From the NCBI GenBank assembly GCA_963714275.1, contig CAVQNT010000003.1, positions 1 to 64,000 on the forward strand: a DNA stretch of 64,000 bases, in the 5' to 3' direction. Under the pieces are notes generated by a model, which was given only the letters and a program-made list of their open reading frames with translations, did not search any database and was not told the origin of the DNA. The translations under genes and the position numbers were made by a program. Source of the stretch: Candidatus Bathyarchaeota archaeon. Its GTDB lineage: Archaea; Thermoproteota; Bathyarchaeia; Bathyarchaeales; DTEX01. Each line of letters begins with the position of its first letter. Within the stretch, counting starts at the first letter, position 1. Positions 1,212-62,791 of the stretch are shown one piece after another.

Positions 1212-2773
1212 ATGGATTTAAGAAAGGCTTGATATTTAGTATAACATGTGATTATTTCCGTGTTCATAATTCATCTTTCTCTTCCGTTTTTTGTCTCTGT
1301 TCATTTGTCTTTGGCAAATCCGGATTACACTTATTATGGCGTTGTTCCCGCAGAAATCTACAGATACATTCTCAACGATTGGGCCGAATTCGAAAACCCG
1401 TGGTTGAACCTTTCATCAGGCTGGATACTCGGACCTGAAAACTCAGGACTACTCGCTGGCTCATTAGCCCAGAACGGTTTCATGGTAGCAACAAAATCGC
1501 TGCTCGTGATTGTTGCATATGCGGACGACACCAACGTGGAGGTTTACGATCTAACGACGAGCATTCGGATTTCTCAAGGTAACTTAAACAGCATGGGGAA
1601 GCTTCTTGTTTTGCTCGATAATGGCACGCACTTCAAGGTAGTCTCAGACAAGATGGTTTCTGTGGAACTACTGAATTATCAGCAAATTCCGTCCGCCGAT
1701 GCATTGGTAGGACCGTTGCCCCACACCTACTATACATCCGTTAACGGTTTGTACGTCGACAAGGAATTCATGTTGATGGCTTCCGAGCAAATGGGCCTGT
1801 ACACTGACCAAGGATATGGCGCATTCTATACCATACTGGCTGTTGAAAAATCGACAGTCACGGTAACTGACGATGAGGGTGGTTCGAACTCATATTCGCT
1901 TGACGCCAACTCATACAAGTGCATAATGCTTGAACCCTTCAAAGTCTACAGAATCGAGTCCACAGGCAACATCATGGTCCAGTCAGGTTCGATCCCTGGC
2001 CCGGGGGGAAATTATAATGGAAATTCGTGTTATCCAGTTCCTGCTGCTGAAGGAGGGTTCGTTGGAACGTTCTTCATAACACGATCTAATAGAGAGAGTT
2101 GGGATAATGTCAAAGATTATGGATTCATGATATTGGCTTCCCAAGACACGAAAGTGAAATTGTTTGACCTTGACACTAAGCAATTAATAAACGAGATTTC
2201 AGTGACGGGCGGAAGCGGGATCACGATTAAACCGAAATACTCCGCAATAGTTTTGCAAAGCGACAACCCAATCACGGTATGCTACACTGACAGCGGCAAC
2301 ATCGAACAAGCAAAAGCCCAGCAAGGAGGAACATACGCCGGATACGGGAATGGAGTGATGTTCATTACCATTCAACCAGCAGAAGACACAATGATTCATT
2401 TGCCCACCGATGCACATGTCGAGACATACTTCTTCGCGAGCGAGGCAACCCAATTAATGATTGACGGCAACACCCAAACATTGCAGGCTAACGTTGGCTT
2501 ACTATACACTGTGCCAGGAACTCACACAATTCAATCCGACCACAATGTCGTCGTGCAAATCAACTTCTGGCCTCTCGTACCCAAAATCAAGGTCTCTGGT
2601 TCACTGGGGCAGCAATACCGTGCATAGAAACAGTGAACGACAACCCAAATGTTACATTATCGCCTATTGAGGGCTTTCCAATGATGTACGTGATCGTTGG
2701 GGCAGCTGTTGCAGCAGTCGCTGTGATTGTTGTACTCTTAGTAATGAGGAGATGCGGCGGCAAACCGAGCTAA
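1212..2773 (+). CDS. Secreted, C-terminally anchored IgGFc-binding-like surface protein, paralogue 1 (frameshifted)
   Basis: Signal-like N-terminus, then YYGVVP, DDTNVEVYDL, ESTGNIMVQS, SDNPITV. After a frameshift near 2590 it reads ...EGFPMMYVIVGAAVAAVAVIVVLLVMRRCGGKPS*. Aligns along its length with 45148..46660. Confidence 0.7.
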
Positions 2774-2848
2774 AAAACCATGGAAAAATCATGTTCGGTC
2801 CAAGTTGGCTGGTTCCAAAGAACAATAATAGCTCCCAATTTTTTATTT

Positions 2849-3049
2849 TTAGGAGCTAGTTGGTAGCCAGTCTAAGGCGTGCTGAGCGATCCAATCATGA
2901 GTCCCACAATCTAGATTGGATGGATCTGAACTGAAGCCACCATTGCTCCAAGCATAAACGACTTGAGATGAAAAAGACGAAAAAAAACATAAATGAAAAA
3001 ACAATACTTCTTTTTTATTTTCCCCATGTAGGTAATACCCAAATGTCAC
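2849..3049 (-). pseudogene. N-terminal relic of a zinc-dependent phospholipase C / P1-nuclease-family protein
   Basis: Signal peptide ending in VYA, then W-SNGG...GTHDWIAQHALDWLP (mature N-terminal Trp and THxxI zinc ligands). Truncated after about 35 mature residues. Confidence 0.6.
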
Positions 3050-3298
3050 AATGACTTACCAATAATATATAATTTTCATTCAAGAACTTTGCTGGTTCAA
3101 ACAAACAGAAAAAGATGGAAAAAAGACATATGCAAGAAGTCGCTTTCAATCATTGAATTTCTTAGTTAAAAGTAATGAAAATTTTAGTCAAATCCAAACT
3201 TCTCTATATAAAAAATAAAGAAAACACACAATGCAATAACATTTTAAATATCAAAAAAGAGATAATTCGGATTAATCAAAGTAAAAGAGCGAATTGGA

Positions 3299-3652
3299 AT
3301 GTTTATAAATATTGTTAGATGGCGTGTTCCTAAAGCGAATAGTAAAAAGCAATTTGAGGTCTGGCGTGAAATAATGGACTACCAGAGGTCTCATCCAGAG
3401 AAGGTTTACTACACTAGGTCTCGGTTCTTCACCTTTTCTGAAGAAGGATCGTCTGAGGAAAACTGGATGTTCCTGGATGAGTATGAGCACCGTGAAGATT
3501 ACAACAAATGGATGAAGGCTGTGCGTGAAGACCCAGAACTAATGAAACTCATGGACGATTGGTTCCCCAAATGGGACGCTCTGATTGTTCCTGGGTCTAG
3601 GAAAGGAGAAGTCTGGACTGAAGTTGAGAAGCTCAGGGTCAAGGTCAAGTAA
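3299..3652 (+). CDS. Small dimeric alpha/beta-barrel (ABM/NIPSNAP/DUF1428-like) protein
   Basis: 117 aa. Pattern IVRWRVPK...WMFLDEYEHREDY...EVWTEV is typical of ferredoxin-like barrel proteins. TTTAAATA box upstream. Confidence 0.5.
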   Translation: MFINIVRWRVPKANSKKQFEVWREIMDYQRSHPEKVYYTRSRFFTFSEEGSSEENWMFLDEYEHREDYNKWMKAVREDPELMKLMDDWFPKWDALIVPGSRKGEVWTEVEKLRVKVK

Positions 3653-3908
3653 GTGTTTGTCTTGAAAACTAGCTGACTCGGAAGATGAGCTTGATTGAGT
3701 TATCCGATGGAAGTTAGGCGAGCTTATCAAGATTGTGCCATTAGAGGAAAAACAGAATTTAAATTGCGTTCTTAATTGAAGTGTTTCTGTAAACGCCATT
3801 AGAACTATCCACAAATGTAAGCATCAATCCTTGGATCAGGACATTCTTCTTTATCTCTTCTTTTACACAATTGATAACTTATCAGGAAGGATGGAACGTA
3901 CAAGATTT

Positions 3909-3992
3909 AACGAGGAAACTGTTTTATTTGCCAAGTTTCTGAGAAATGAAAGAGAAACATGGATTCCCAGAACGTCTATTTTTGATTTCTAA
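3909..3992 (+). pseudogene. Putative Cas1-solo (casposase-like) C-terminal relic, copy A
   Basis: Translates NEETVLFAKFLRNERETWIPRTSIFDF*. This resembles, from recollection, the C-terminal tail of Bathyarchaeia Cas1-like proteins. Shares 39 identical bp with copy B. Confidence 0.5.
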
Positions 3993-4105
3993 CTTCTATC
4001 GAGAATTCTCTCGATATTTCTTTTCTCTTTTCTTCTTCTGTGCTCAATGAATTATTTTAGGCTTAAATATTCACGCGCGCTTAAATTCTTGGAGGGTGAT
4101 TCGTA

Positions 4106-4547
4106 ATGTCAATAAAAGAAATTAAGGCGCTCGAGCGTCATGTTCTTAGAGGAACACAACAAGGGAAAGGCGGCTGCCATGGCAGTAATGGACGAGGTAT
4201 ATGCCACTGACTTCGTCTATCACGGTAGCACCGAGAGCGAGGATATACACGGCCTTAAGGACTTAAAACAATCTATGAGCGAGTACTTCAACGTGTTTCC
4301 CGACCTTCATTACACCTTGGATGACATGGTCGTCGAAGGGGACAAGGTAGCGGTACGCTGCACAGTGACTGGCACACATAAAGGTGAATTTATGGGCATC
4401 CCCCCAACCAATAAGAAGGTGAAGGTGCAGGCAATCGCCATCGACCGTGTCGTTGGCGGCAAGATCGTGGAAGAATGGGGAATATCTGATACTCTGGGCT
4501 TGATGCAGCAACTCGGAGTTGTACCTACGCCTAAGAAGGGAACATAA
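4106..4547 (+). CDS. Ester cyclase / SnoaL-like (NTF2 fold) protein
   Basis: FPDLHYTLDDMVVEGDKVAVR..TGTHKGEFMGIPPT..GKIVEEW..D.LGLMQQLG. GGAGGG RBS. Frameshift near 4140. Confidence 0.9.
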
Positions 4548-4618
4548 CCTCACTGATACCATTCCAGACTTCAACTTCCACCTCTTTTTATGTTCGTATA
4601 GACTTGTTGTGTCAATGT

Positions 4619-4809
4619 GTGTTTTTTTGTGTGTGTGTTTTTAGAGAGAGTGTATATGTGTGAGTGAATGAGAAGGAAAGCAAGAGCGTATAAAAGATTT
4701 AGTGTGTGGGGATTAAATTTTTAACCTTTCTCTCTTTACTTTTCTATTACTCTATATATTACCCTCTTCACACACGCACAGGCGTGTGTGCGACTCACAC
4801 AAAAAACAC
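4619..4809. repeat. Quasi-palindromic MITE-like element, copy 1 (core GATTAAATTTTTAACC)
   Basis: Terminal inverted repeats GTGTTTTTTTGTGTG (4619-4633) and CACACAAAAAACAC (4796-4809). GT/GA-rich left arm, CA/CT-rich right arm, core at 4711-4726. Confidence 0.6.
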
Positions 4810-4928
4810 TAAACGATGTAATCAGGCGCTTCTCTGCACAAGCGACCACGTTCTCGCCACATATCAAGAACGAACTCGTCTATGATCTCATCAGCCTTCT
4901 TACGCTTAGGCTTCTTCTTAGCCATCAT
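4809..4928 (-). CDS. Small basic hypothetical protein (39 aa)
   Basis: MMAKKKPKRKKADEIIDEFVLDMWRERGRLCREAPDYIV*, preceded by a purine-rich GAGGAGAGG RBS-like sequence. Confidence 0.45.
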   Translation of the reverse strand: MMAKKKPKRKKADEIIDEFVLDMWRERGRLCREAPDYIV

Positions 4929-5155
4929 GCTTCCTCTCCTCTAAGCTTAGCCTAAAGCAGAAGACCTCTATCATTCATAGAATTTCTGATTTAACTCTCA
5001 AAGAAGCTATCTGGATAGATCGGGAAACAGACTACAAGAAAGACTATCCAGAGTTACCTCCATTTATTACTGATTCAGTCAAACTATTTGGATTATATCC
5101 AGTAGCGATAATGAAAAAGATATTTGATGAGCTTAGAGAGAAGAGAGGAAATAGC

Positions 5156-5361
5156 ATGAAGAACACTGAATGTACAATCTACATTACTACCAAAAATGGC
5201 TGGGTACAGAGTGACCGTAAGGGGAAGAATGGCTGGACACAAACTAGCCAAAATGGTAAAGTTCGCCAGCTCAAGTGCAGAGCAGTCTGTTGTCACACAT
5301 CCTCCCTCGACTTGCAGTAGCTGGAAACCTTAGTGTTAGGGTGGAGCCTGATGCCAAATGA
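5156..5361 (+). CDS. Small hypothetical protein (frameshifted)
   Basis: MKNTECTIYITTKNGWVQ..KNGWTQTSQNGKVRQL, continuing out of frame as ..AEQ.LSHILPRLAVAGNLSVRVEPDAK*. Confidence 0.4.
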
Positions 5362-5374
5362 GATATATGGAGAT

Positions 5375-5472
5375 GGAAGTCTGGGAATCCATGTTTCTCT
5401 TTCATTTCTCAGAAACTTAGCAAACAACAAGGCTTCTTCATTAATCAGCGTTTCTAAGGTCTGCTTACTGCC
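5375..5472 (-). pseudogene. Putative Cas1-solo (casposase-like) C-terminal relic, copy B
   Basis: Translates GSKQTLETLINEEALLFAKFLRNERETWIPRL. Begins directly after the ACTAGCTCACT motif. Inverted relative to copy A. Confidence 0.55.
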
Positions 5473-5740
5473 AGTGAGCTAGTCATGGTCTGAGAATATG
5501 CGGATAGTAGCTTGGGTTACTCTTTTATCGCATAATCAAGGATTGCTCAAATGGTTTCTGATGCAATGTATAAAGCAAGGTTCAACCTTGAAGGTTTCGC
5601 CAAAGGGAGATAAGCCACCACCAAGAGTTGTTTTTCGTTATGGTAGACAAGAGAAGCAAATTCGAAGTTTTCTAAGCTTCCGAAAACTCATCAATAATAT
5701 TTTATGGAACTTGAACGGTTAGTAACCGCAGATTAACGAT

Positions 5741-5840
5741 CATTATTCGGTTATTGTTCGTTTGTTGTTTGTTCATTGTTCGGTTATATGTTCGTTCATT
5801 GTTCGGTAATTGTTCGTTCACTACTCGGTCATTCTCGGTT
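5741..5840. repeat. Array of about nine 11-bp direct repeats, consensus YATTGTTCGKT (iteron-like)
   Basis: cattattcggt|tattgttcgtt|tgttgtttgtt|cattgttcggt|tatatgttcgtt|cattgttcggt|aattgttcgtt|cactactcggt|cattctcggtt, followed by a T-rich tract at about 5885-5950. Confidence 0.8.
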
Positions 5841-5990
5841 TTCACTTGATAGACATATGGATATGAATTGAACAATATTTGTGTGTTTTTTTTATTTTTT
5901 ATATTTTATTTTTTATACACAAAAAAAGAGAAACGGGCGGATTATTTTTTTCTTAGGTGGGGCAAAGACTTGAACATCGCTGGTTGTTGG

Positions 5991-6341
5991 TTATTTCTTT
6001 TTAGGTGGAACAGGCGTTTGCACATCACTTGTTGTTCGGTACACCACGCTTGAAACAAACCTCGTATTATCCGTGAAGTCCCATGTCTTATCAGAGTACT
6101 CTTGCATAGTTTTTGATGCCCTTATCTTGTCTAAAGTTGCCCAATTGGGAATTTCATACCAGTCGATAATAGCATCATCGCCAAATCCAAGAATGGGGAA
6201 GTATGTGTCAATGTATTTAAAGCCTGTTTCCTTTTCCTCTCTTTTGAAAAGGTCTTTTGCATCGTCAGAAAGGAGCCATTTCTGATATTCAGCCATTTTT
6301 TCCGCCTTAATATAGTATTTCGCAGCAAGAAACATCTTCAA
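5991..6341 (-). CDS. Small dimeric alpha/beta-barrel (NIPSNAP/ABM-like) protein
   Basis: 116 aa, KYYIKAEKMAEYQKWL...DWYEIPNWATLDK. GGAGGAG RBS. Confidence 0.55.
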   Translation of the reverse strand: MKMFLAAKYYIKAEKMAEYQKWLLSDDAKDLFKREEKETGFKYIDTYFPILGFGDDAIIDWYEIPNWATLDKIRASKTMQEYSDKTWDFTDNTRFVSSVVYRTTSDVQTPVPPKKK

Positions 6342-6399
6342 ACTCCTCCAACAATTCTCTTCATTGCATGATCATAAAAGCTTATCGTAGAAAACATGA

Positions 6400-6572
6400 G
6401 GGTGAGAGTGAGATTGGGTTTGGTTTGGGGGTTAAAAATTTAATCTTTTCTTCTTCTACAACTACTAACGTTTTCTATCCGTCCTTCTCTAGTCCTTTAC
6501 CTCTCTCTCCTCACAATACGAAAAAATATACTCATACACATGTGAGAGAGAATAATACATCACACAAAAAAC
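6400..6572. repeat. Diverged second copy of the GATTAAATTTTTAACC element (inverted)
   Basis: Exact reverse-complement core GGTTAAAAATTTAATC at 6430-6445. Ends in CACACAAAAAAC (6561-6572). A partial third core lies at 13467-13480. Confidence 0.55.
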
Positions 6573-6618
6573 CTAGAGTAAGGTATTCTCATTTCTTAAA
6601 AGAACTAGCTTGTTTTAA

Positions 6619-7409
6619 TTAGTGTTCGACAATCTTTGGCAGGGCTTTTGCTATCATACTCCCATGATATGGGTCTAAGGCTGATTTCATATTTCTGTTA
6701 ATTCGTTTTTGATATTCGGTGAACATTCTTTCTATCTCTTTATGGCTTGTATTGGCCAGATGCTCAAGTGTCTTGAATCCCATACTGTAATAATGGTTTA
6801 CACATTTCCCTCTGCAAAATGGGATGCGGCTAAAATCTGCCTTGTTTAGTAATTCATACAAGAACTCCTCGGGAACACTAGTTTCTTTCGATAATTTTTT
6901 TCTTCCCGCTTTTGTGTGTCCCACCTCGAATAAATCAAGGGTGAACTTAATATTGTTTTTACGTAAAGTCATTGCGAATTTCTGTTCATCATGTTTTCCT
7001 TGTCCACTAATTCACTTAAATAAATTTTTTGGGGAAGAACCCAACTTCGTAGATAGTGAAGAAACCCGATCAAATCGTTAATTGTAATATTAGTTTTTTG
7101 AAGAAACAATTCAGCCTTTTCTTTGGTATCTATCGTTAATAATAAACCAGTATAACAGGAAATGCCTGACTCATTAAAATGCTTAATTATTTTTTTAATA
7201 AATGCGGAATATTGGACATACCGTTGTTTAGGGTCACTATCTAGCATTTTTTCAACAAAATGTATGCTTTCATCCATACTATGATCATAATTCTTTTTAA
7301 TGACAGAATACGAAAAAACATCCAGAAATAATTTTATTAACCCTTCATAAGTTTTTGCGCCCGTTCCACCCAAATCTATTTTAGACCAGTTAATTTCCAC
7401 CTGAAACAC
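6619..7409 (-). CDS. DUF4332-like (helix-hairpin-helix) protein, frameshifted
   Basis: Two adjacent ORFs. C-terminal TKAGRKKLSKETSVPEEFLYELLNKADFSRIP..G..YYSMGFKTLEHLA matches the DUF4332 pattern. Confidence 0.65.
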
Positions 7410-8618: not shown

Positions 8619-9928
8619 ATGACATTGATGAAATTGATGAAAAAAATGACGAAAAATCTTGTGGAAGATACCGATTCTTGGAGTTCATCGTCTCCAGAAC
8701 CATCGCTAGCACCCAAATTCAGAGTTGAGAAGGCTGAATCCGGTGGAGACGTTCTTGTAATTGCTGGAGGTGGGAACCCATACTGTTTTGGTAGATGGAC
8801 GAGGCATATTCCAGTTGAAGGTGGCAAAACCTACAGATTTAAAGTACGTTTTCAATTTACTGGAATCGATGACCTAAACCTCAATGTTCTTAATATGCTA
8901 ACCTGGAGGGTGGGAAATAATCCTGAAACTCAATGCCCTCAAGATTATATAGAACACCTCTATAAGGAAAAAGACTACGTAATTGGTGAACAAGTTTTCA
9001 CAGCTAAAAAAGAAGCTTAATGGCGTAGATTTAGGTCTTCTTTTACGCTTCATCGCTGAAGGTGAAGTTAAATGGAATCTGGTAGAATTTATTGAAGATA
9101 AGCCTCCAAAACCAAGATACGTTACTGTAGTAACTATGCGGGGAAAGCCAAGCCAGCCTAGTATGCTAATAAAGAATTTAAAGTATTGGGCTGATCTGAT
9201 AGATCTTGCGGCATCGTATAAACCTGATTTAATTTGTCTTCCAGAAGCTATGAATGCATATTCAATCGTCCAAACTTCACTCTATGAAGTGGCTGAACCT
9301 ATACCTGGTCCAACATATAAAATGATGAAAGAAAAGGCCAAAAAATATCAAACATATGTCTGTGGATGCTTTTACGAGCGAGAGCAAAATTTTGTCTTCA
9401 ATACTGCAGTTCTCTTTGATAGAAAGGGGAATGTGGTTGGAAAGTATCGTAAGGTTCATCCCTACTGGCCAGAAGAACTTCAAGGTTGTAGTCCAGGAGA
9501 TGATCTTCCAGTCTTTAAGACCGATTTTGGTACTGTGGGAATCGTTATTTGTTACGACAGACTGGTTTGCCGAGACAACTAGGCTTCTTGCACTTAAGGG
9601 TGCAGAAATTATTCTTTTTCCCAACGCTGGATATGAAAAGAAATTATTACCTGCCCGAGCTATCGATAATAATGTTTACTTCGTAGTAGCTTCCTTGTTT
9701 AGTAACGCAGTCATCATGGATACGCTTGGAGACGCCTTGGTTGAAGCCAGTTCTGACGGCATCATATCAGCTAAGATTGATCTGAATAGTAAACCTACAC
9801 CTCATCCTAATGCTGGAGGAACCTTGAATGCAAGTCCCGGGGGAAGACGAGGAACACGTAATTCACCTTCCTTGAAGTTGTACCAAGAGATTCTGCGGGA
9901 AGTTGCCCGATGGAAAAGCAAGACATAG
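8619..9928 (+). CDS. Carbon-nitrogen hydrolase (nitrilase family) with N-terminal beta-sandwich extension, frameshifted
   Basis: Catalytic triad motifs LPE, YRKVH and ICYD, plus GAEIILFP. Three overlapping ORFs. Confidence 0.85.
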
Positions 9929-9974: not shown

Positions 9975-11354
9975 TTATAGATTGAGTCCCTTTATCGAGG
10001 AACCTAGACCTACTGGCTCTAATGAGTCTGTTCGGATGATTCCGTCTTTTACTTCGAAGAGGCTTCTATGCCTGTTTTGAACCTCCTGATAGGCGAAGGG
10101 TAGGTATTGCCTGGCGTTATATTCAAATCCCTTTAATGGTTTTGTGCGGCTGGCTAGACTCGCCGAGTGCACCAAAGCTCAAGCCTGGGCATGTTAGGTC
10201 TTGAATTGAGTATGGAATTCGTTTATGCTCCATCTTAGCGATATATATGAGACTCGAGGAATACCATTTACAGGCTTTTACAGCAACCCCTGACCACCCA
10301 AGGTTAAGTGCCAAGTCAAAAGTCTTAAAATCCGTTACACCCTCATCAGCGAGCACAGGCTTAATATTCGCAACCTCCTTCATAGAAAACATGTGATTAA
10401 CAAATTCTCTTTCAGTAGGCTGCTCTAAATAGAGAAGCCGATTAAACGCCATCGGCGAGGCTTCTCTCAATTTCCTTAAATATTCCAAGGTTGCATCTGG
10501 GTTCAGGTTCATCTCGTTAGCGTCCGATGAAAGGTAAAACTCTTCTCGTCCCCTTCTTTTGAGAGTTTCCTGAGCTATCTCGGCAACGGACTTTGTTCTC
10601 TGGACATCCCAATCGATATTTGTCCCACTCAGCTTCACTTTTAAACAGAAGACACCGTCGCGTTCAATCCATTCCTCTAAGCTGACAGGCAATCCATCCT
10701 TTGGGTCGCTTGCATCAACTTCATCCCTTGTCAACTTGTCCAAGGCACCTACTAAGTGGAAGATTGGAAGTTCCTTCACATAACTCGGTCTAAGATAGTC
10801 TGAAATGTATCTACCTCGAAATTCATCTCCTAAATAGAAGCTAAGGTCGTGCTCCATGAACTTCGGGCTGTAACCATCGTAAGAGCATATCCCATTCACA
10901 CGTCCAAAAGCATCATGTAACGCGGCATCTATAGGCGAAGTAGCTACGAGAACACCTAAAACTGGCATGTTGACTTGAAGGCCAAGCTCTTTGTCAACTT
11001 CCTCTGCGATCTTGAAGATCTCTTGTTTTGCTCCTAACATTATATTAATTGGATGTGCATATTTTTTTGATGAACTTTTTTCTAGGAATCGACAAGCTTT
11101 TTCACCTACTATCATCATTGCCCTGAGCTTTTTTCATGAGGTATCGTAAAGTCTGGAAACGCCCATTGATCCATAATGGGCATTGCACCTATGCCATCTG
11201 TCACATGACCCTTCTTGTTTTCAACTGTGGCCTTGACGATCATAGAAGTGGACTCATTGACAACAACTTTGCCAAATTTCAAGGGAACACGGAAGTTATC
11301 AGTCTTAAAAAAAGGGGCAAGTTTCAGAATCTTGATGTCCGAGTCTAATGTCAA
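9975..11354 (-). CDS. Mandelate racemase / enolase superfamily protein, frameshifted
   Basis: DAALHDAFG, LKVKL, DANE, LEQP, ADEG, VAVKACK motifs. Confidence 0.85.
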
Positions 11355-13369: not shown

Positions 13370-13534
13370 AAGCATCTTCAAGAGCTAACTAGCTAAAGAT
13401 ATTAAGTTAGCTGACTTCTTCGATACATTGCAAAGCGGATAAGAAAGAAAATAAGAGAGAGAAAAAGGTTAAAATTTAATTCTGACCAGATTTTTGAAAG
13501 CTTAAGCTGACTGGCTTTTAAAAATATTCTATTC

Positions 13535-17772: not shown

Positions 17773-18309
17773 AAGTTCACGGAGTAAGATATTTGCTTTT
17801 TCGTTCTCGTCCCCCCTCAAAATATTTCCATTATACCAAAGTAAGCAAGTAATCATCTGGAGATCCTCAGGCGAATACTTTGAAAGACCACTTCCTACGT
17901 TTCGGGCTTTTTTGAGTAGCGAGTTGTCCATATTGTGGTTAGAAGCTTATTTGAGTTCTCCAATAGGAATGAATAATCTATGTGAAGCGTAAGACTAGAC
18001 ACGCCCAACCTAGCAAATCCCTCGAAATCCTGATAGTAATTAGGCAATCCCATAATCTTTTGACCAATATATATCCCATTATTAATACTGCGTCGATACT
18101 TTTTCTGAAAGCCTTCCAAGAAAGAGTTTAACATGCCAATTCTTTCCATATTATGCATTTTTTATTACACTCCCTTGAGTCCCAATTTTTCATCATGTCA
18201 TATATATAATTTTTCATCATACGAGCTCAAACATAAACCGTATTTAACTCCTATGTGCCAGACCGTATAGGGGGAGGGGGATCTCTAAGATTTTGTCCCA
18301 TCCTTCTCC

Positions 18310-18589
18310 TTATTTTTCCAGCCTTCTCCTCATCAGCCATCTGTTCGGTCCGATGACCTGGCAATCATATCCGCTATTAGCCAATTTGACCAATTCATCA
18401 TCAGTTTCAACTATTTTGCTCTCACAGGTTTCATTTCCATTCTCCTTTAACATCTTTAAAAACGCTTCCTTTACTCTTGGCTCTGCATGAACTCCTTCAG
18501 TCTTGCATCTATTTTTTTGTCTATTTCTTCAGGGGACGGTCCGCTTTGGGTTCCACTAATAGATTCAGATATTTTTCTCTATGCCTGTC
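18310..18589 (-). pseudogene. C-terminal relic, possibly of an archaeal tyrosine integrase
   Basis: With frameshifts reads ..IEK.LSISGTQSGPSPEEIDKKIDARLKEFM.EPRVKEAF..ESKIVETDDELVKLANSGYDCQVIGPNRWLMRRRLEK*. Resembles the KIV..EEL..L..G(W/Y) tail of archaeal integrases. No catalytic residues present. Confidence 0.3.
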
Positions 18590-62658: not shown

Positions 62659-62791
62659 TTCTTGCATTCTGCACGTCCACTTTGCTCATTGCTTTTCAAT
62701 ACATTCAATGCAGCAATATCAACGTAGAATTCAAAGCTCTGAATCAATTAGGTGGTGGTGGATTATATTTTAATCAACTAACCAAAACCTA

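Follow-up and report, generated by a model that had tools for sequence, protein, structure and literature searches.

A 64-kb stretch from the genome of a Candidatus Bathyarchaeota archaeon (GenBank assembly GCA_963714275.1, contig CAVQNT010000003.1, positions 1 to 64,000; hereafter the window) contains two short gene remnants, A and B, which point at each other from opposite strands and share, at their tips, an identical stretch of 39 nt coding for the extreme C-terminus of a Cas1 protein. With up to three mismatches allowed, the 39-mer was present only at these two sites of the window, and none of 100 dinucleotide shuffles of the window gave a match (0/100). The inverted pair and its coordinates, as well as the peptide translations proposed for both copies in the original prediction, were thereby confirmed. 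In copy A, ...RFNEETVLFAKFLRNERETWIPR is followed by TSIFDF and a stop; in copy B, LTGSKQTLETLINEEALLFAKFLRNERETWIPR is preceded by a stop and followed by LPSPY.... The repeat extends to 65 nt (3907-3971 and 5380-5444; 88% complementarity, 1408 nt between the arms), and all 8 mismatches fall within the 5′ 26 nt, a distribution whose chance we estimate, by our own arithmetic, at ~3e-4. Five of the mismatches are changes at third codon positions. The pair thus consists of a stretch that has diverged in a codon-like manner and a perfect 39-nt tip that ends sharply after the codons for WIPR. Scanning of the 64 kb revealed no tRNA genes, no Rfam families and, as had been anticipated, no CRISPR-like arrays.

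The two remnants differ in their state of preservation. In the case of remnant A, tblastn aligned positions 3801-3980 with residues ~278-343 of a 344-aa relative (P0016) at 42% identity, but only the last 26 codons (profile positions 316-341) were clearly recognisable; this copy has its own stop 6 codons after WIPR. Remnant B is preceded by an in-frame stop and lacks a family-like ending after WIPR. Next to remnant B, on the opposite strand and only ~10 nt apart, lies the 3′ half of a gene that we call Y, one of several that recur beside full-length cas1 genes in related loci (designated L followed by a number). The fragment matches the Y proteins of L050 (66% identity, E = 1e-40) and L028 (53% identity, E = 3e-30), and its orientation with respect to remnant B is that of Y and cas1 in L050, L028 and L001. 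Because remnant B adjoins the 3′ half of Y on the opposite strand, the junction of an internal deletion probably lies between them, at ~5473-5482. Taking L050 as a yardstick, we calculated that the missing piece would comprise ~3.7 kb, including the 5′ half of Y, the genes Z and X, a regulator and cas1 codons 1-307.

Both remnants point at an AT-rich near-palindrome located between them, at 740 nt from tip A and 654 nt from tip B. The segment 4703-4779, which includes this palindrome, resembles the ends of related elements and is, judging from the profile match, the cas1-proximal end of the B element, with canonical polarity and at a canonical distance (654-677 nt) from the B tip. On the other side of the palindrome, the A element may have a degenerate end at 4590-4710. 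The original view of the 1.4 kb between the tips as a single bracketed cargo unit does not fit with an element end and a palindrome situated in the middle of it; the stretch is more plausibly made up of two remnant arms that come together at the palindrome. We consequently interpret the locus, from its sequence, as a pair of dead remnants arranged tail to tail around an element end and its target palindrome, at least one of which would have been gutted by an internal deletion.

Table. Features of the window around the two cas1 remnants, and elements bounded by terminal inverted repeats in nine related loci (span instead of position).
Feature	Position or span	Strand	Basis and remarks
AT-rich arm of outer inverted repeat	3200..3231		partner 5879-5924; 26 nt at 96% plus 20 nt at 85%
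cas1 remnant A	3801..3992	+	decayed 3′ fragment; tblastn, profile and translation
exact 39-nt arm, tip of remnant A	3933..3971	+	repeat search; codons for KFLRNERETWIPR
SnoaL-like gene, putative cargo of A side	4140..4547	+	PF07366, E = 1.4e-38; between remnant A and palindrome
GT/GA-rich flank, A side of palindrome	4590..4710	-	only palindrome part matches end profile, E = 0.47
predicted element end reading towards remnant B	4703..4779	+	nhmmer E = 6.8e-6, profile positions 3-91
16-bp AT-rich near-palindrome	4711..4726		variant of GATTAAAWTTTAATC core; 740 nt past tip A, 654 nt past tip B
39-aa lysine-rich open reading frame	4812..4928	-	between palindrome and remnant B; no family match
exact 39-nt arm, tip of remnant B	5380..5418	-	repeat search
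cas1 remnant B	5380..5478	-	profile positions 308-340; near family consensus
3′ half of element gene Y (residues 79-157 and stop)	5483..5722	+	protein similarity, family clustering
partner arm of outer AT-rich inverted repeat	5879..5924		~160 nt past stop of Y fragment
second 16-bp core, perfect inverted copy of 4711-4726	6430..6445		(TTTGG)n-like run before, CT-rich flank after; profile E = 0.049
element in L002	4608 bp		repeat 146-154 nt, 98-99%; cas1 full length
element in L006	6427 bp		repeat 123 nt, 98%; cas1 full length
element in L053	8495 bp		repeat 305 nt, 99%; cas1 full length
element in L046	9000 bp		repeat 320 nt, 93%; cas1 tail only
element in L023	3196 bp		repeat 122 nt, 95%; cas1 positions 251-340 only
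element in L033	3573 bp		repeat 119 nt, 100%; cas1 positions 216-341 only
element in L001	7663 bp		repeat 36 nt, 89%; cas1 full length and tail
element in L017	8016 bp		repeat 38 nt, 89%; cas1 full length
element in L063	9997 bp		repeat 44 nt, 89%; cas1 full length

Pfam gave no match to the two 33-aa window peptides, whose identity as Cas1 pieces was established via their relatives. Using the 61-aa reading frame of copy B as a query, we found 127 longer proteins among 141 candidates. The Cas1 family PF01867 was present in 99 of the 120 listed relatives (best E = 1e-9), and in all 39 relatives of at least 320 aa the tail motif stood at the extreme C-terminus, followed by 2-33 residues, mostly 3-6. 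The parent family in Bathyarchaeia thus comprises Cas1 proteins of 340-345 aa, and both window copies correspond to their very end, which in the alignment is also the best conserved part of the protein. PF01867 was found in the full-length genes of the 17 loci scanned (E = 1e-38 to 4e-51), in 16 of them as a single reading frame; in L047 the gene is split by a stop and the larger piece matches at 4.7e-32. A full-length relative exceeded the TIGR00287 cut-off (134.9 versus 71.7 bits), and the catalytic residues E, H, D and E/D were invariant in 34 of 34 full-length relatives. Their best match of known structure was the CRISPR Cas1 of A. fulgidus (4n06, E = 1.7e-20), followed by the casposase of M. 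mazei (6opm, E = 3.7e-13). Since the relatives carry PF01867, pass curated cut-offs and keep the catalytic residues, the Cas1 identification made in the original prediction is correct. The window remnants themselves do not include the catalytic part of the gene and cannot encode an enzyme.

The parent Cas1 is outside any CRISPR system, in agreement with the CRISPR independence that the original prediction attributed to the family. A k-mer scan detected no CRISPR arrays in 78 related loci, and Pfam searches of 149 proteins neighbouring the 17 full-length genes did not find Cas2, Cas4 or DNA polymerase families. Instead, full-length cas1 is accompanied by a recurrent set of genes without a Pfam family, X, Y and Z, together with a winged helix-turn-helix (wHTH) protein encoded directly upstream of cas1. 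X (~300-366 aa) contains Walker A-like and Walker B-like motifs according to our reading of the alignment consensus; its profile gave weak matches to AAA+ lids among solved structures (best E = 0.0066), and in the protein atlas it falls in unnamed, virus-rich clusters. Y (~165-195 aa) is uncharacterised and Z measures ~105-150 aa. PADLOC, NCBIfam and PHROGs contained no family for the module proteins X, Y, Z and f10, and for the wHTH protein they gave weak Csa3, ArsR or Lrs14-like matches only. A protein of ~110-120 aa is sometimes encoded downstream of cas1. Beyond the cas1 stop the DNA is variable and often contains defence genes, among them a ThaI restriction-modification pair, a type I restriction system, Fic, a CAP12-type TIR protein, HEPN/AbiV, PLD, and NERD with a RelA/SpoT-like gene.

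In nine related loci, cas1 or a 5′-truncated piece of it lies inside a segment of 3-10 kb bounded by terminal inverted repeats, which supports the proposed origin of the parent gene in casposon-like elements. Inverted repeats were obtained by comparing each locus (for the window, its first 16 kb) with itself and kept if they measured at least 35 nt with E ≤ 1e-6. Six pairs were strong (119-320 nt, 93-100% identity) versus three weaker ones (36-44 nt), and three of the nine were confirmed by an independent tool. In all nine elements cas1 points to the nearer end, which is located 0.7-3.1 kb past the cas1 stop. The smallest element with a full-length cas1, in L002, has five reading frames, of which that of Cas1 alone has a significant family match. 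Among the scanned reading frames inside the repeat-bounded elements, neither other transposase or recombinase families nor Cas2, Cas4 or PolB were found. Gutted versions also exist: in L023 and L033 a 3′ fragment of cas1 adjoins a fragment of Y or Z inside the terminal repeats, and L008 likewise has the 3′ parts of cas1 and of Y or Z side by side.

Each terminal repeat opens with GATTAAAWTTTAATC or a variant of it, an AT-rich near-palindrome of 15-16 bp. CT- or CA-rich sequence that contains a TATATA-like motif comes next. In six of the nine pairs the two cores match better as direct than as inverted repeats (15/15 versus 12/15 in L006; 16/16 versus 12/16 in L046). Outside the repeats, L002 is flanked by TTTGGG on the left and CCCAAA on the right, while core sites devoid of element flanks look like (TTTGGG)n-core-(CCCAAA)n. 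Because the outer flanks of L002 fit such sites, insertion into the palindrome with a 15-bp duplication is probable. We also built a profile from 16 terminal-repeat ends of related elements and searched with it (nhmmer). In loci outside the profile, 11 of 66 tails had an end facing them 0.3-3.3 kb downstream, as against 4 with an end in the other orientation, and upstream ends were found in 0 and 1 of 72.

The core GATTAAAWTTTAATC or its variants occurred at 37 sites in 27 of 79 sources (for instance L010:11998, L039:1972 and L058:6311), including four in the window (4711-4726, 6430-6445, 13467-13481 and 62761-62775). It often forms part of a longer palindrome with (TTTGGG)n or (TTGG)n and (CCCAAA)n or (CCAA)n arms, in many Bathyarchaeia genomes. 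The exact core string was not found in the literature searched; a promoter, a terminator and a protein-binding site are candidates for its native role. In L050, inverted (CCCAAA)n and (TTTGGG)n runs (4915-4947 and 10156-10196) border a full cas1 module, with no core according to the pattern used, and these runs may represent a variant type of end. L046 contains four copies of one long end-like repeat, two per orientation (2055-2363, 5829-6017, 10736-11054 and 18151-18450, over 16.4 kb), an arrangement suggestive of several elements that are nested or adjacent, of which at least one lacks a cas1 remnant. In L053, tail-like cas1 pieces of 18-24 codons (4941-5012 and 10561-10614; E = 2e-5 and 2e-4, Z = 1000) are placed on both sides of the full cas1 module, in direct orientation and within one repeat-bounded element.

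The 78 loci came from a genome scan seeded with an alignment of 62-aa C-termini, in which 361 stretches matched the pattern, 127 were confirmed and the best 80 retained; short tails are under-sampled, as longer matches rank higher. Nearly all loci belong to Bathyarchaeia records. A profile of 34 full-length proteins, run against six-frame translations of the loci and the window, matched 125 stretches that merged into 101 cas1-like units. Of these, 71 were 5′-truncated with the 3′ end kept (69 in the loci and the two of the window), in line with the claim that 3′ tips are repeatedly retained; 22 spanned the full length (three of them frameshifted or decayed), five were cut by the end of a contig or locus, two were internal pieces (one a tail with an in-frame stop) and a single one was 3′-truncated. 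Since every locus was found through its tail, the units that seeded no locus constitute the fair sample. According to our reading of the profile results there were 21, comprising four full-length genes, one undetermined unit and 16 fragments, 14 of which kept the 3′ end. The sole 3′-truncated cas1, in L019 (10055-11009, minus strand, profile positions 2-317, frameshifted), coexists with a separate inverted tail 6.7 kb away (3186-3389, plus strand, positions 274-341); the two overlap in the gene map and so do not represent a simple break. A few loci came from genome bins titled as other phyla, namely L033 and L066 (Acidobacteriota genera), L038 (Terriglobia), and L028 and L032 (other archaeal phyla); mis-binning or transfer could account for Bathyarchaeia-type Cas1 tails in them.

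To what extent is the identity of the two tips exceptional? A tblastn count, with matches below 30 bits dropped beforehand, yielded 98 tail copies. Only three of their 4753 pairs share an in-register exact run of at least 39 nt, and of these the window pair is the only one that reaches the tip itself. The other two, L022/L055 and L062/L066, each involve two different genome records and are taken as orthologues. In 19 other pairs of tails from the same locus the longest common run did not exceed 22 nt. Because the upstream part of A is decayed, that of B is close to the family consensus and the adjoining 26 nt differ in a codon-like way, we infer that the two tails would descend from different cas1 genes and that one tip was recently overwritten. 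Gene conversion or recombination between inverted remnants 1.4 kb apart would be the simplest cause of the 39-nt identity.

Taken together, we consider it reasonably probable that the tails are 3′ remnants of two Cas1-solo genes from polymerase-less, casposon-like transposons, that B was gutted and that its tip was homogenised with that of A without acting in cis. The B element would have become gutted and non-autonomous through a single internal deletion of ~3.7 kb, in which cas1 codons 1-307 were lost together with the 5′ half of Y and the remaining element genes. Remnant A would be older, more decayed and derived from a second element, which faces that palindrome from the opposite side. Repeated insertion into a palindromic, duplicated target would give such a tail-to-tail layout. 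The perfect 39-nt block would have been written recently by gene conversion or recombination between the inverted tips rather than being preserved as a conserved cis-acting site. More generally, tails would be common because the last cas1 codons persist when an internal deletion spares the element ends and the cargo arm.

Several observations weigh against this explanation. In the window, the A-side end matches the end profile only in the palindrome (E = 0.47), a matching terminal-inverted-repeat pair was found for neither remnant, and the core copies are inverted (16/16) rather than direct (12/16) and do not form a simple duplication pair. Among the related elements, the cores of three of the nine pairs (L033, L017 and L063) match better as inverted repeats; the core being nearly palindromic, few positions separate the two orientations, and the call of a target-site duplication is provisional in view of these three pairs. 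A facing end was detectable for only 19 of 76 tails when all loci were counted and the false end of the 3′-truncated L019 gene was left out. The excess of tails is inflated, because the seeds were found via the tail, which is the best conserved part of the gene and the one by which old fragments are most easily detected. Gene conversion, in turn, is read solely from the step-like identity profile. Finally, a comparison of syntenic loci (pairs with at least 400 nt in total at 80% identity or more) showed 94% identity between L004 and L027 along a 6-kb stretch that leads up to the tail and includes it, with similarity gone no more than 10 nt past the tail end. Similarity between L010 and L025 (85% identity) also breaks within 10 nt of that point; the DNA that follows has been replaced (1.8 kb in one locus, 3.2 kb in the other), and the two align again from the core palindrome onwards. 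Such breaks are not predicted by the decay model and suggest that the arm past cas1 may have been exchanged with a breakpoint at the end of the gene.

Because these junctions suggest exchange of the arm at the gene end, the idea of a recombination site stays alive as a rival. The original prediction had proposed that the tip acts in cis as an element end or recombination site. The first half of this proposal does not hold for the nine repeat-bounded elements, whose ends coincide with the separate near-palindrome and the inverted repeats, well beyond the cas1 stop; a role at junctions is favoured by the two syntenic breaks. In its general form, in which the tip is supposed to serve as an element end, a subterminal site for Cas1 binding or a site of recombination, and on that account to be kept in all derivatives and identical within a genome, we judge the proposal unlikely. 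It would account for the fact that the 39-nt identity ends exactly at the tip while the upstream part of copy A has decayed, for the retention of the 3′ end in most non-seed fragments and in the gutted elements of L023 and L033, and for the recurrence of a 117-nt tail plus downstream gene, 92% identical, in the different upstream contexts of L010 and L055. However, across genomes the tip is conserved at the codon level only, its third positions varying freely, and the other same-locus tail pairs lack comparable identity. Moreover, full-length cas1 modules are not surrounded by inverted or direct repeats derived from the tip, apart from chance matches of 11-13 nt, the L050 (TTTGGG)n runs being the exception to the absence of flanking repeats. 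A more specific version, to which we give slightly less credence, is that the last ~40-130 nt of cas1 constitute an internal cis element, such as a subterminal integrase-binding site or an enhancer, that all mobilisable gutted derivatives would retain and that would be homogenised among the copies in a genome. If true, Bathyarchaeia would host a large population of non-autonomous, cargo-carrying elements mobilised by Cas1 and inserted successively into a 15-bp palindrome that is duplicated each time, and their repeat-insert-repeat arrangement would be a present-day counterpart of the transition proposed from casposons to CRISPR arrays.

The remaining possibilities fit the data less well. Tails could be attachment-site copies left by tyrosine-integrase elements that enter the 3′ end of cas1 carrying a partial copy of it, as islands that target tRNA genes do. 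One tyrosine-recombinase family (PF00589) is indeed encoded in 6 of the 78 loci: in L024 two direct tails flank ~8 kb with integrase fragments, and in L029, L071 and L076 the integrase is encoded on the opposite strand, 0.7-2.3 kb upstream of the tail. Yet an integrase of this family is lacking in the window and within 10 kb in 72 loci, 6 of 78 is close to the chance expectation by our own rough estimate, the fragments reach 260 codons, far longer than attachment sites, and the window copies are inverted instead of direct; tyrosine integrases may explain a minority of tails, but as a general origin we find them very unlikely. Still less probable is a working DNA-inversion switch, in which the 39-bp repeats would flip the 1.4-kb segment with the SnoaL gene and a promoter. 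Perfect inverted repeats 1408 nt apart, identical although the neighbouring sequence has decayed, are what such a switch would require, but no recombinase family was found in eight reading frames scanned at 1248-7409 (a subset of the frames there), none of the 19 other two-tail pairs is comparably identical, and a flip would not obviously alter the expression of the SnoaL gene, whose own flanks lie within the segment. As for the view that the remnants are unrelated pseudogene debris, identical by coincidence of strong codon conservation, the tail is certainly the most conserved part of the protein; nevertheless, this view is disfavoured by the pair statistics and by the Y fragment and element end beside copy B, which denote an organised remnant, and we regard it as scarcely credible.

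The rest of the window adds some further features. The SnoaL-like gene on the A side is preceded by an ATG at 4106 whose frame, in our reading of the sequence, resembles a SnoaL N-terminus and is out of frame with 4140-4547; the gene may be frameshifted near 4138. The flanks of the central palindrome have no partners in the 64 kb. At 6430-6445, the second core may mark either the distal limit of the B remnant or the point where another element begins. The AT-rich arms of the outer inverted repeat may be degenerate element ends, or low-complexity sequences that match by chance. A larger inverted duplication that would include the flanking 117-aa and 116-aa genes was ruled out (BLASTP E = 0.28). 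Just past the stop of the Y fragment there is a tandem array (5742-5820) with 6.9 copies of the 11-nt unit ATTGTTCGTTT, also readable as a 22-nt unit. Further downstream, three frames on the same strand (8619-9020, 8983-9582 and 9356-9928) overlap in different frames and may be one gene broken by frameshifts.

If read as transposon remnants, an odd pair of peptide-coding repeats becomes a legible fossil of a poorly described family of Cas1-driven transposons. Non-autonomous DNA transposons that arise by internal deletion, such as miniature inverted-repeat transposable elements (MITEs) and Ds-like elements, keep their arms and lose the middle with the transposase gene; their breakpoints vary and their copies outnumber intact elements. 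The element of L033, with 100% identical 119-nt ends around a gutted interior, is comparable to them. In contrast, the derivatives described here keep 1-3 kb of cargo and are not miniature, and their mobilisation in trans by Cas1 is putative.

Casposons are cas1-polB islands with terminal inverted repeats and target-site duplications, classified in four families (PMC9939771). Common to them and to the present elements is a Cas1-family integrase, without arrays or cas2, inside an inverted-repeat element. A family B DNA polymerase gene is present in all casposons identified according to the accessible text of that paper (PMC9939771), whereas none was found in the 17 neighbourhoods or among the reading frames scanned in the nine elements here. 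The elements therefore share Cas1 and inverted repeats with casposons, lack the polymerase and may share the duplication, as far as the definition given in that text goes. For the A. boonei enzyme the same text gives a duplication of 15 bp, and it also describes insertions in tandem at a single target and a target with a palindromic sequence (PMC9939771); the target in our case is an intergenic palindrome and not the 3′ end of a tRNA or protein gene. In addition, the structural match favours CRISPR Cas1 (4n06) over the casposase (6opm).

The closest relatives appear to be the proposed family 5 casposases, under which the parent gene can be filed on the basis of sequence features. These are Cas1-solo proteins placed next to subtype I-A Cas1, with the active-site residues kept, mostly without a DNA polymerase, lacking a C-terminal helix-turn-helix domain and surrounded by poorly conserved hypothetical genes; terminal inverted repeats were described in five contigs of that study, some of them of family 5 (PMC9755687, Front Microbiol 2022). 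Its supplement gives lengths of 329-347 aa (mean 343 aa), and two printed sequences end in ETLINEEA..AKYLR...W.PR (PMC9755687). The parent Cas1 agrees in tail motif, length, lack of polymerase and inverted repeats, a match made from the printed motif and lengths rather than from an alignment. The window, for its part, holds dead remnants only and no element. In the accessible parts of that paper we did not find described the 15-bp palindromic core and its duplication, the set of AAA+-like, Y, Z and wHTH genes, the gutted derivatives or the 5′-truncated tails (PMC9755687). The accessible text of the literature searched likewise contained no account of terminal inverted repeats of up to 320 nt starting at one conserved 15-bp palindrome, of a probable 15-bp duplication of that core, of a recurrent AAA+-like ATPase with two unknown proteins, a wHTH regulator and defence-gene cargo, or of gutted derivatives outnumbering intact copies by ~3:1, a ratio that applies to a tail-seeded sample.

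With respect to the CRISPR adaptation module, arrays are absent from the 78 loci and the window, and neither cas2 nor cas4 families occur in the 17 scanned neighbourhoods, but the Cas1 fold and catalytic residues are the same. Also, the probable duplication of a short palindrome upon integration recalls, by analogy, the duplication of CRISPR repeats. Polymerase-less Cas1 transposons that would repeatedly enter a duplicated palindrome thus bear on the origin of CRISPR repeats and of the adaptation module itself.

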